DNA from: Candidatus Aldehydirespirator sp.
GTDB lineage: Bacteria > Actinomycetota > Acidimicrobiia > Acidimicrobiales > Aldehydirespiratoraceae
Assembly (NCBI GenBank): GCA_965205155.1
Contig: OZ242033.1
Coordinates: forward strand, 628,590 to 692,589
Length of the DNA stretch: 64,000 nucleotides
Reading direction: 5' to 3'
Part shown: positions 35,658 through 45,296 of the stretch, in pieces
Position numbering within the stretch: position 1 is the first letter of the stretch
How the letters are laid out: the number at the start of each line of letters is the position of its first letter
Translations under genes and position numbers: made by a program
The notes under the pieces: model-generated
Databases searched by the model: none
Seen by the model: only the letters and a program-made list of their open reading frames with translations
Told to the model about the DNA's origin: nothing

Positions 35658-38600
35658 TCACTTCGCTTGCAACGGCTGCACCCAGTAGCGGCGACGCTGG
35701 AACGGATAGCCCGGCAGGGCAACCCGGCGCCGGGTCTCACCTTCGAACAGCATGGGGAAGGACGCGTCGCCACCGGCCGCGTACTCGGCTGCGACCGCTT
35801 CGACCTGAGCACCGTCATCGTCGGCTGCGGGCGGCGGCAGGCCCGCTCGCCGGTTGCCGCCGGCCACGTCCAGCAACCCGTCCCGGAGCGATTCGACATC
35901 GCTGAACAGGACCGCGGCCCGGCACTCGAAGTGGCTGCGCCCCATGCTCGCCGTCCAGGCCATGTCGGCCAGCAACCCGGCCGCGGCACCATCGGAGTCC
36001 GACAGCTCCCCGGCTCGCTCGTCGAGCCATGCGAGGTACCGCTCGGCAAGCTCCTGTAGGGCCTGGTCCGAATGAGCCGACAGCGGCAGTAGCCGCGTCC
36101 AGCTCTCCGGCCGTGTGTCGCCGGCGGATGGGGAAGCGTCGCCCGGCGGTGCGTCGTACCCCTCCAGGACGAGGTGCGCGTTGGCACCCGAGATGGCGAA
36201 GGAGTTCACGGCGGCGAGCCGGGGCCGACCAGGGGTTGTGGGCCAGTCGGTCATTCCGGCCGTCACCCGGACGAGCAGCCGGTCCCAGTCGATCTGTTCG
36301 CTCGGCTCGCTCAAGTGCAGGTGCTTGGGGATCTTCCCCCGGTTCATGGCCAGCACCGTCTTGATGAGGCCGGCCACAGCCGATGCGCATTCCAGGTGGC
36401 CGATGTTGGTCTTGACCGAGCCGACCAGTAACGGACGGTCGCGGTCCCGGCCGGTGCCGTAGACGGTCGCGGCCGCGTTCATCTCGACCGCGTCGCCAAG
36501 GGCGGAGCCCGGCCCGTGCGCCTCCAGGTAGTCCACCTCCGCGGGCACGACCGCAGCCCGGTCGAGTGCTTGCTCCATCGCCTGCATCTGCGCCGGACCG
36601 TTGGGCTGGATGAGACCCAGGCCGGTCGCGTTCTGGTTGACGGCCGTGCCGCGTATGACGGCCCAGATGCGGTCGCCGGCGGCTATGGCATCGTCCAGCC
36701 GCTTGAGCGCCACCATGCCGCAGCCCTCGCCCCGGACGTAGCCGTCCGCCCCCGCGTCGAAGGCGCGGCACTGCCCGCCGGCCGACAGCATTCCCGTCTC
36801 CGCGAGGAACTTGGCGATCGACGGGGACAGGACCGCATTGGCGCCCCCGGCCAGGGCCAGATCCACCTCGTGCTGCTGTAGCGCGGTCACGGCATGGTGT
36901 ATGGCGACCAGCGACGCCGCGCAGGCCAGGTCGAAGGGCACGGCCGGGCCGGCCAGGCCGAGAGTGAACGCGATCCGCCCTACGGCCACGCTCGGGGAGG
37001 TGCCGAAGTAGCTGTCGCCCCGGCCGGCGTCGGCGATGGTCTTGCGGTACTCGCTGCTGCCGCCGATCCCGGCGTATACCCCGGTGCGGCTTCCCTTCAG
37101 GCTGGCCGGATCGATTCCGCCGTCCTCGAGCGCCTGCCAGCTCGTCTCCAGCAGCATGCGTTGCTGGGGGTCCATCATGCGGGCCTCGATCGGCCGGATC
37201 CGGAAGAAGCCCGCGTCGAACCGGTCGATGCCCTCGACGAATGCTCCCACCCGGCTGCTGGGATCGGGGTTGGCCGGATCCCCGAAAGCCCCATTCCAGG
37301 GGCCGGGGTCCGGGCGCCCGTCGGTGACCGCGTTCCCGCCCGCCTCCAGCTGGCGCCAGAAGCTGTGCAGATCCGGTGCGCCGGGGAACCGGCACGCCAT
37401 CCCCACTATGGCGATGCCGCTGCTCGCGGGCGGGCCGGTGGCCGGCGCCCGCGCCGCGGGACGCGCCGACTCGTCCGGCCGCTCTGTCTCCGGAGCCACG
37501 GCCCCGCCTGCCTCGCTCGGCGCGGGCGGCGTGGTCGCTGCGGGCGCCTGTATGGCGAAACGCCCATCGGCTCCGCCGTCGAAGGCCTCGATGCCGCCCG
37601 CCTCGGCCAGCTCCGACGCCAGGTGGGCGGCCAGGCTACCGATGCTGGGATAGTCGAAGGCCGCGGTGTTGCTCGCCGAGTACGCGCCCGCGAAGCCGCG
37701 ATTGATGCGGTTCCTCAACTCCACCGCCATGAGCGAGTCCATGCCGAGGTCGGCGAACTCGGCCGAGGGTGCCGGCAGGGTCGGCAGGCGGGTCACCGCC
37801 TGTACCTCCCGCTGAAGGAAACTGCTGAGAATCTGCTCGTGCTCGGCCGGAGGCGACTGGCCGAGCAGCGTCGGCAGGTCCGCCTGAGAGTCCTGATCTC
37901 CGCCGGACCCGCTGGAGGCCTCGGCCACCAGATCCTCCACGAAGGGTGAGCCATGTTGCTGGCCCTCCGAGACCACCTGCCAGTCCTTGGCCGCCACCAC
38001 GGGCGCGAGCACGTCCTGGCGCACCAGGCGGCCGAAGGCCCTCATGCCCTGCTCAGGGGTGATCCAGCCCGTCCCGGCGGCCTCCAGCCGCCCGGCGATG
38101 CGCTCCCGATGCTCCTCGGCTTCGCCGAGCTCCGACCAGGCTCCCCACGCGATCGACTGTCCGGCCAGGCCTCTCGACCGGCGGTGGGCGGCCAGCACGT
38201 CCAGGAAGGCGTTGGCGGCCGCATGGTTCGCCTGGCCCGGATTGCCCATCACGCCGGCCACGCTCGAGAAGAGCACGAACAGGTCGAGATCGAGGTTCTC
38301 AGTGGCCCGGTGCAGCTGCCAGGCTCCGAGCACCTTGGGCCACAGCACCTGCTCGAAGCTCTGCCAGGTCTGGTTGGTCAGCGCGGCGTCGGACAGCACG
38401 CCCACGCTGTGCACGACGCCGGCCAGCGGCGGCAGCGTCCCGGAGATGCGGGCCAGCATGGCGTCCACCGCGGCCGTGTCGGTCATGTCGGCCAACTCCA
38501 CGCTCACCGTGGCGCCCTGGTCACGCAGCTCGGCTATGGCCGCGGCCGCATCCGGGTCCGGGTCCCGGCGACCGTTGAGGACGATGGCCCCCGCCCCGCG

Positions 38601-45296: not shown

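Follow-up and report, generated by a model that had tools for sequence, protein, structure and literature searches.

The closest described counterpart of the element reported here is sup, the 'sponge symbiont ubiquitous PKS', which the literature presents as an unusually small, monomodular type I polyketide synthase (PKS) that is sponge-specific and ubiquitous in sponge microbiomes. Its sequences dominate the ketosynthase (KS) amplicons recovered with DPQQ/HGTGT primers from high-microbial-abundance (HMA) sponges, accounting for >99 % of KS reads in one study, and SUP gene cluster families have been found in metagenome-assembled genomes (MAGs) of several unrelated phyla within one sponge. Mid-chain methyl-branched fatty acids have been proposed, not shown, as the product. 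The published genes are reportedly supA (PKS), supB (acyl carrier protein, ACP), supC (4'-phosphopantetheinyl transferase, PPTase), supD (hydrolase) and supE (permease), and SupA is said to end in KS(-AT), AT denoting acyltransferase. Credit for the supA-E cluster is said to belong to Fieseler et al. 2007 (AEM) and Hochmuth et al. 2010 (ChemBioChem). The annotation of SupE (ABE03914) is that of a permease, with which a 557-aa permease shares 44 % identity. We analysed 64,000 nucleotides of 'Candidatus Aldehydirespirator' sp. (class Acidimicrobiia, family Aldehydirespiratoraceae; assembly GCA_965205155.1, contig OZ242033.1, positions 628,590 to 692,589), hereafter the window, which carries a 3212-aa PKS at 35658-45296. 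The gene and its neighbours are very probably the Acidimicrobiia ('Ca. Aldehydirespirator'/UBA11606-like) copy of sup; Aldehydirespiratoraceae UBA11606 is reported to include a sponge-symbiotic clade.

The PKS is encoded on the minus strand by a single open reading frame (ORF) of 3212 codons that opens with TTG and is free of stops throughout, and it was confirmed as a real gene. GC content at third codon positions is 0.89, typical for real genes of the window, in which GC ranges from 0.65 to 0.73 (roughly 70 %). The start overlaps the end of the hydrolase gene upstream (45289-46194), sharing its stop codon region, and a GGAG stands 10 nt before the TTG; no other start codon precedes the KS core. 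Pfam resolved KS, AT, dehydratase (DH), C-methyltransferase (cMT or MT), enoylreductase (ER), ketoreductase (KR) and PP-binding (ACP) domains followed by a second KS (both KS jointly E 6.5e-157), the latter trailed at residues 2998-3145 by KAsynt_C_assoc and a CurL-like/RhiE-like linker. No thioesterase (TE), reductase (R) or condensation (C) domain was found by Pfam in the 3212 residues. The features of the protein, with residue ranges in brackets, are as follows.

35658-45296, minus strand: SupA-like type I PKS, KS-AT-DH-cMT-(psiKR)-ER-KR-ACP-KS-linker, 3212 aa; ORF list, translation, Pfam and 72 same-architecture intact proteins
44133-45266, minus strand: KS1 (11-388), DTACSSS (182-188), EAHGTGT (318-324) and NIGHLE (357); Pfam and motifs, 70 % identity to other-phylum relatives
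42693-43568, minus strand: AT1 (577-868), GHSLG and xAYH; Pfam and motifs, malonyl-type by motif
41565-42452, minus strand: DH (949-1244), HxxxGxxxxP and DxxxQ; Pfam and motifs
40395-40925, minus strand: C-methyltransferase (1458-1634), S-adenosylmethionine (SAM) motif EVGAGTGS; Pfam and motif
38709-39566, minus strand: ER (1911-2196), HAGAGGVG; Pfam and motif
38130-38663, minus strand: KR (2212-2389), Rossmann motif intact, His2358 at the catalytic Tyr position (GQANHAAAN); Pfam and motifs
37620-37817, minus strand: integrated ACP (2494-2559), GMDSLMA; Pfam and motif
36093-37349, minus strand: KS2 (about 2650-3068), DLACAAS (2789-2795), EAHGPGS (2925-2931) and NIGHLE (2964); Pfam and motifs, own clade apart from KS1
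35661-36092, minus strand: KS-AT linker domain and post-AT linker (3069-3212), no AT core between them, as left behind by a deleted second AT (AT2); Pfam, family alignment and PDB match

An earlier note on this DNA had read the same domain order, complete catalytic triads in both KS domains and the lack of a release domain from motifs. Pfam and the motif positions bear this out, all the KS motifs quoted there were located in the translation, and the downstream carrier protein that it placed at 35339-35584 was confirmed by its PP-binding domain. The ORF at 34574-35284 encodes an Sfp-type PPTase.

To place the PKS among its relatives, the ACP-KS2 tail was scanned against one genome per GTDB species. 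The scan yielded 184 confirmed loci, and 79 of them were kept. ORFs of these loci were annotated with the window's own domains, and proteins of >3000 aa were treated as intact (n=72, including the window). The order KS-AT-DH-MT-ER-KR-ACP-KS was present in all 72 intact proteins, and at least 72 species-level genomes encode a PKS with this layout. Almost all kept loci came from MAGs of lineages known as sponge symbionts, belonging to many phyla, and these MAG series are probably of sponge origin. The nearest relatives were Acidimicrobiia and 'Ca. Aldehydirespirator' MAGs, with 96-97 % amino acid identity and cluster DNA 93-95 % identical, and the remainder shared 49-58 % amino acid identity and came from SAR202/Dehalococcoidia, Chloroflexota, Gemmatimonadota, Latescibacterota, Dadabacteria, Thermodesulfobacteriota, Nitrospirales, Gammaproteobacteria/Arenicellales and 'Ca. 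Poriferisocius' MAGs.

Set against the published description of sup, the window encodes a small single module with an MT and a fatty acid synthase (FAS)-like reductive set, contained by Pfam in one 3212-aa protein, and the 79 kept loci are spread over unrelated phyla of sponge-associated bacteria. Both primer sites are present in KS1 (DPQQR in 70/70 and [AT]HGTGT in 70/70 members covered by these counts, window included). Two permease genes lie directly upstream and a permease is kept beside the PKS in most phyla; the match to SupE is one of annotation, and of similar size to the 557-aa homologue of SupE, and does not come from comparing sequences. The family also conserves a free ACP, a PPTase and a hydrolase, which would answer to SupB-D if these are as reported. 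The locus is worth recording as a Sup-type cluster from a sponge-symbiotic member of the Acidimicrobiia and does not represent a new kind of PKS. The novelty implied by the earlier note does not hold, since the architecture is the conserved layout of a large family of sponge-symbiont lineages that matches published sup. That note had also named a characterised homologue of the same architecture and known product as a finding that would overturn its reading: such a family has indeed been described, but the reviews and follow-up literature on sup give no demonstrated product for any of its members.

Catalytic motifs of the first module were conserved family-wide, including GHS[LV]G and xAYH/xAFH in AT1, HxxxGxxxxP and DxxxQ in DH, E[VI]GAG[TI]G in MT, HAGAGGVG in ER, the Rossmann motif TGGLGGIG in KR and GMDSL in the integrated ACP. 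Under the HAFH/YASH rule for AT specificity, AT1 is inferred to be malonyl-type. Given a malonyl-type AT1 and a cMT in the same protein, the methyl branch should derive from SAM and not from methylmalonyl-CoA. The KR departs from the usual pattern. Residues 2354-2362 (window 38211-38237) read GQANHAAAN, placing His2358 in the slot of the catalytic Tyr, where solved PKS and FAS KRs carry the Tyr of YAAAN (GQGAYAAAN in mycocerosic acid synthase, MAS; GQPGYAAAN in AmphB), and this His is invariant (72/72 family members). One reading is therefore that the reductive loop is crippled, such that an inactive KR would leave alpha-methyl beta-keto units and no saturated chain. The universal replacement of Tyr favours it, as does a Tyr-to-Phe change at the same position that is a null mutation in another PKS. 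Against this, no domain of the PKS is better conserved than the KR (74-76 % identity across phyla), its NADPH motif is intact, and the DH and ER motifs are conserved too. We also used the KR as a query against 1.84 billion representative proteins and inspected the 507 KR domains in the 150 best matches, of which 476 carried Tyr and 16 carried His at the catalytic position. The context GQxNHAAAN[AT]F was shared by 13 of the 16 His-KRs, the owners being the sequences closest to the query, and among these were multimodular PKSs whose modules with a GQANHAAANAF-type KR also bear DH and/or ER, the pattern of an active variant and not of decay. Because it combines the highest conservation in the protein, a His context shared with the nearest sequences and the company of DH and ER, the His-KR looks like a clade-typical variant that is predicted to be active, and we regard a crippled loop as decidedly improbable.

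The multimodular PKSs with Sup-like modules were P0361 (5547 aa), P0365 (4267 aa), P0367, P0368, P0369, P0380, P0382, P0415 and P0478. Their KRs were 64-67 % identical to that of the window and likewise of the His variant, and cMT was often present. The single-module Sup PKS therefore has multimodular cousins.

The second KS retains what a condensing enzyme requires. Its Cys, the His of HGTGT and the His of NIGH (Cys2792, His2927 and His2967 in the window) were kept in 72/72 members, and its identity, at 61 % when the window is set against other phyla and 67 % when those are compared with one another, is comparable to that of AT1 (61-62 %) and ER (64-66 %). In a distance tree of all family KS domains, KS1 and KS2 formed two clean clades, consistent with an old duplication of which both copies have been maintained; the two are 53 % identical in the window. 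In KS2 the third and fifth residues of HGTGT are free to vary, and the motif reads HGPGS, HGAGS, HATGS and others. The evidence points to KS2 being a working condensing enzyme, as predicted from its residues and conservation. The main competing view holds KS2 to be non-condensing, a shuttle or gatekeeper, a KS0-like transacylase or a structural dimerization element that would pass the finished chain to the free ACP or the hydrolase. Consistent with such a role, positions 3 and 5 of HGTGT are degenerate and the AT meant for KS2 is dead or deleted in every member (see below). However, the non-elongating KS0 domains of trans-AT PKSs typically lack the HGTGT His, whereas here the Cys and both His are invariant, KS2 is conserved about as well as AT1 and ER, and a shuttle would deprive the conserved free ACP behind the PKS of any extender role. 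We therefore consider a non-condensing KS2 improbable. Assignment as KSQ or KS0 was rejected on the retained Cys2792, His2927 and His2967, and the earlier note's proviso that KS2 might fall in a non-condensing clade was not borne out, as judged on active-site residues.

A C-terminal KS usually marks a split module in trans-AT and some cis-AT systems, which the earlier note had given as a general rule. On such an account KS2 would dock on a separate AT/ACP-bearing PKS encoded elsewhere as part of a longer assembly line, and the related multimodular PKSs with Sup-like modules lend it some support. It conflicts with the gene content of the loci: no further PKS, non-ribosomal peptide synthetase or FAS gene was found among the larger window ORFs scanned, and in 72 relatives of many different phyla the PKS gene is followed by no carrier or PKS gene other than that for an 80-aa ACP. 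The partner of KS2 in the window and in the relatives' loci is thus the free ACP alone, and a true split module is extremely improbable. A Pks13-like head-to-tail reaction, in which KS2 would join the PKS chain to a long carboxyacyl group on the free ACP and yield an alpha-alkyl beta-keto product, is hardly more attractive. The ACP-KS2 region scored second best against the NCBIfam Pks13 model and Pks13 structures were among the PDB matches, but the score of 434 bits falls far under the cut-off of 2100, KS domains of CurL, DEBS and MAS match equally or better, and the AT1 motifs are malonyl-type. There is, moreover, no N-terminal ACP and no C-terminal ACP-TE in the protein, and no fatty acyl-AMP ligase or acyl-CoA carboxylase among the conserved neighbours. 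We hold this reaction to be very unlikely.

The tail behind KS2 records the loss of a second AT. Some 140 residues beyond KS2 comprise a KS-AT linker domain and then a post-AT linker, RRRVALPGYPFQRRRYWV (3189-3206), which is a near copy of the stretch that follows AT1, RRRVALPGYPFQHQRHWV (920-937). The protein therefore ends in KS, KS-AT linker and post-AT linker, with the AT core gone. Most relatives do have a second AT behind KS2, and the tail alignment showed it to be catalytically dead in every one. Across the 47 AT2-retaining sequences the nucleophile position of GHSxG was Gly, Asp, Asn or Lys in 45, and in the other two Ser was kept outside a GHS context; the small subdomain that bears the catalytic HAFH-type His was absent from all 47. 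Examples are seen in L025 (about residues 3119-3319 of the PKS) and in L072, L048 and L067 (range L025-L079). The sequences form a decay series, from AT2 missing its small subdomain, through a further truncated AT2 in one SAR202 clade, to linker only, the state of the window, all Acidimicrobiia and several separate Dehalococcoidia lineages. The window's form is accordingly one of several decay states in the family. AT-less sequences were scattered amid AT2-bearing sisters (e.g. L023 beside L042 in both tree halves), so that deletion of the AT2 core occurred repeatedly, several times independently. Residues 8-593 of the 597-residue window tail align end to end with the AT-less KS-linker didomains (KS-LD) 4qyr, 4ope and 4wky, so the deletion leaves a known, stable fold. 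As AT2 is dead or absent family-wide, AT1 is the sole active AT encoded in the cluster for the free ACP. In two Acidimicrobiia relatives the PKS stops right after KS2 and the ACP frame follows a few bases on (L017, PKS end at 11656 and ACP ORF at 11660-11983; L018, PKS end at 11662), with the linker domain also missing, which could be a further reduction or an assembly frameshift.

The genes around the PKS, all on the minus strand, are given below.

46227-48002, minus strand: NCS2 (xanthine/uracil permease family) transporter with a C-terminal extension of ~150 aa, SupE-like; domain scan, conserved neighbour
48079-49839, minus strand: second, tandem NCS2-type permease paralogue; domain scan, conserved neighbour
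45289-46194, minus strand: alpha/beta hydrolase, SupD-like, 301 aa, its stop overlapping the PKS start; domain scan, conserved neighbour
35339-35584, minus strand: discrete ACP, SupB-like, 81 aa, invariant G-V-x-S; domain scan, conserved neighbour
34574-35284, minus strand: Sfp/HetI-type 4'-phosphopantetheinyl transferase, SupC-like; domain scan, conserved neighbour
32967-34643, minus strand: amidase-signature enzyme, adjacent and probably outside the core cluster; conserved beside it in Acidimicrobiia alone

In the direction of transcription the window thus reads two NCS2 permeases, hydrolase, PKS, ACP, PPTase and amidase, beyond which lie genes for a Rieske oxygenase, 2-oxoacid dehydrogenase E1 alpha and beta and a lipoyl protein. 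Four of these accompany the PKS across phyla, namely free ACP, PPTase, alpha/beta hydrolase and a permease of the NCS2 type. The ACP gene lay directly behind the PKS in nearly all relatives, and its serine (G-V-x-S) was invariant across the family. The usual order in relatives was PKS-ACP-PPTase-hydrolase with the permease nearby, that of the Acidimicrobiia permease-hydrolase-PKS-ACP-PPTase. The hydrolase had invariant Ser115 (FHSxS), Asp138 (FDPP) and His277 and shared 63-67 % identity when Acidimicrobiia were compared with other phyla, much as the PKS catalytic domains do. Going by this conservation, we assign the hydrolase and the permeases to the cluster. The earlier note had drawn its limits at 32967-46194, which now change at both ends, the amidase falling outside and the permeases at 46227-49839 joining the hydrolase at 45289-46194 as conserved partners. 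The amidase, Rieske, E1 alpha/beta and lipoyl genes (28323-34643) were syntenic in all Acidimicrobiia relatives and absent from the cluster elsewhere, and therefore reflect ordinary synteny. A core role for the amidase in malonamyl or amide chemistry was dropped on these grounds, but since its gene adjoins that of the PPTase it may have a lineage-specific role.

Several further observations concern these neighbours. The nucleophile elbow of the hydrolase is unusual, F-H-S-x-S in place of GxSxG. Searches for the hydrolase found no informative characterized homologue, the PDB sequence matches being generic esterases (E about 1e-4), and an exact-sequence look-up gave no match; its AlphaFold (AF2) model was poor (mean pLDDT, the per-residue model confidence, 48), and a 99 %-identical hydrolase sits on a 4.9-kb metagenome scaffold of uninformative context. 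The ~150-aa C-terminal extension of both permeases weakly resembles anti-sigma-factor-type HATPase_c_2 (E 9e-4, below the Pfam cut-off), and the conservation of a nucleobase-type transporter beside a lipid-type PKS is puzzling. Among the closest relatives (L001) the amidase frame opens 4 nt past the end of the PPTase frame. Some Acidimicrobiia relatives carry an extra gene of ~300 aa between PPTase and amidase (L009, 13076-14080; L010, 13279-14301) that is absent from the window and by eye resembles a PhyH-type Fe(II)/2-oxoglutarate dioxygenase. A promoter and terminator scan of 32.5-50.6 kb gave a result at or below chance.

From these data we propose a route in which the PPTase would convert the internal and the free ACP to their holo forms and AT1 would load malonyl on the internal ACP and, we infer, on the free ACP as well. 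Module 1 (KS1-AT1-DH-cMT-ER-KR-ACP) would extend a fatty-acyl or acetyl starter once or iteratively, C-methylating with SAM and reducing fully, to give a saturated methyl-branched acyl-ACP. KS2 would then take the chain from the internal ACP and presumably perform one decarboxylative condensation with malonyl on the free ACP, leaving a beta-ketoacyl thioester on the stand-alone carrier. This beta-ketoacyl-ACP might be released by the Ser-Asp-His hydrolase or handed to type II FAS for elongation; elongation would place the methyl branch mid-chain, as the literature proposes for Sup. Carrier activation, loading of the internal ACP, the chemistry of module 1 and a release step rest on domain content and conservation; the condensation by KS2 onto the free ACP is put forward tentatively, as is the choice between the two fates of its product. 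The earlier note had also suggested one extra condensation onto a unit held by the discrete carrier, and this is the most likely reading of KS2, given the triad kept in 72/72, the identity of 61-67 % and the adjoining ACP gene.

The route lends itself to a broader conjecture, on balance unlikely, in which Sup is a 'branch-installing shunt' into ordinary fatty-acid synthesis, with KS2 as a bypass, AT1 serving two carriers and a working His-KR. Module 1 would add one or a few SAM-methylated, fully reduced C2 units and KS2 would take the chain beyond its branch point to a free ACP compatible with type II synthesis; KS2 would exist because housekeeping KS enzymes handle alpha-branched acyl chains poorly, and AT2 would have been free to decay and vanish repeatedly because AT1 serves both carriers.

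Several points count against the overall interpretation. Identity with sup rests on matching descriptions and not on sequence comparison. Protein searches with the ACP-KS2 tail, the hydrolase and the KS1 amplicon region gave no match named 'Sup', the matches being unnamed or generically named metagenome and MAG proteins, and the SupA domain string is not stated in the sup reviews and follow-up literature. The His in place of the catalytic Tyr is a second difficulty, in light of the Tyr-to-Phe null mutation elsewhere; if this form of KR is inactive, the fully reducing reading falls. The relaxation of the KS2 motif to HGPGS, HGAGS or HATGS is another. Taken as a whole, an Acidimicrobiia copy of sup operating through its PKS and free ACP as proposed is nonetheless our preferred explanation, and a reasonably probable one.

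Known since 2007 and abundant in public MAGs, genes of the Sup type are the predominant finding of PKS surveys of sponge microbiomes. For expression work, closed genomes with complete clusters offer a good point of departure. Useful guides to experimental design are the KS2 that is always intact, the AT2 that is always dead and repeatedly lost, the strictly conserved hydrolase and free ACP, and the His-KR. For genome mining, the architecture is best filed as a Sup-like lipid-type PKS and not as a novel natural-product assembly line.

Elsewhere in the window, four paralogues of a Rieske/ring-hydroxylating oxygenase alpha-subunit were present within 64 kb (17643-18992, 31369-32613, 50627-51814 and 53151-54665). 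At 24843-27746 a methenyl-tetrahydromethanopterin cyclohydrolase gene lies beside one for a luciferase-like monooxygenase; this points to tetrahydromethanopterin-linked metabolism of C1 compounds or aldehydes, in keeping with the name 'Aldehydirespirator'. A GcvT-type aminomethyltransferase-DUF1989 fusion, hydantoinase/oxoprolinase A and B, and a 1301-aa fused molybdopterin enzyme, xanthine-dehydrogenase-like and with an FAD domain, are encoded at 90-2582, 7196-11238 and 13718-17623 and represent nitrogen-compound catabolism around the cluster.

Comparison with other known PKS types sets the locus apart from each of them. MAS and MAS-like enzymes of mycobacteria share a single fully reducing KS-AT-DH-ER-KR-ACP module without integrated TE that makes methyl-branched fatty acids, and among solved structures MAS matched the KR best and was one of the best matches to KS-AT. 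However, MAS takes its branches from methylmalonyl-CoA via the AT, has a normal Tyr in its KR where the window has His, and lacks a cMT, a second KS and a dedicated free ACP. A MAS-like iterative PKS was ruled out because AT1 carries GHSLG and xAYH/xAFH, not GHSQG/YASH, and a cMT and second KS are present; NCBIfam Pks2 and MAS-type models scored far below their cut-offs on the window PKS. Fungal highly reducing PKSs such as LovB and LovF have a module identical in order to module 1, with the cMT ahead of psiKR-ER-KR, and LovB was among the PDB matches, but the window enzyme is bacterial, adds a second KS and a free ACP, and in its KS-AT is nearer to bacterial cis-AT modular PKSs (CurL 678 bits versus LovB 380).

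The trans-AT KS-LD didomains (PDB 4qyr, 4ope, 4wky and 6mhk) match the C-terminal 597 residues and likewise have no AT, this likeness being confined to the KS2-LD part. The AT-less state of the window differs in being a recent deletion in a cis-AT lineage, as sister sequences still carry the dead AT, and AT1 resides in the same protein; a trans-AT PKS was ruled out given the integrated, intact AT1 and the absence of a discrete AT gene among the neighbours. A Pks13-type protein (ACP-KS-AT-ACP-TE) was excluded by the score already given and the missing TE and N-terminal ACP. Swf, the sponge widespread FAS-like PKS (swfA-C), is the other monomodular family of sponge symbionts, with KS-AT-DH-ER-KR-ACP. 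In SwfA there is neither an MT nor a second KS, the KS motifs are DPQ(I/V)R and HATGT, and the genes that come next are swfB (R and sulfotransferase) and swfC (radical SAM). Since DPQQR, HGTGT and an MT are found in the window, and no R-sulfotransferase or radical SAM gene among the neighbours, Swf was ruled out.

Sup itself corresponds in being a monomodular type I PKS with an MT and an FAS-like reductive set, in its HMA-sponge lineages, in its permease and in the DPQQR and HGTGT motifs of KS1. Within this family the window differs from most relatives in the complete loss of the dead AT2 and in a gene order of permease-hydrolase-PKS-ACP-PPTase as opposed to PKS-ACP-PPTase-hydrolase.

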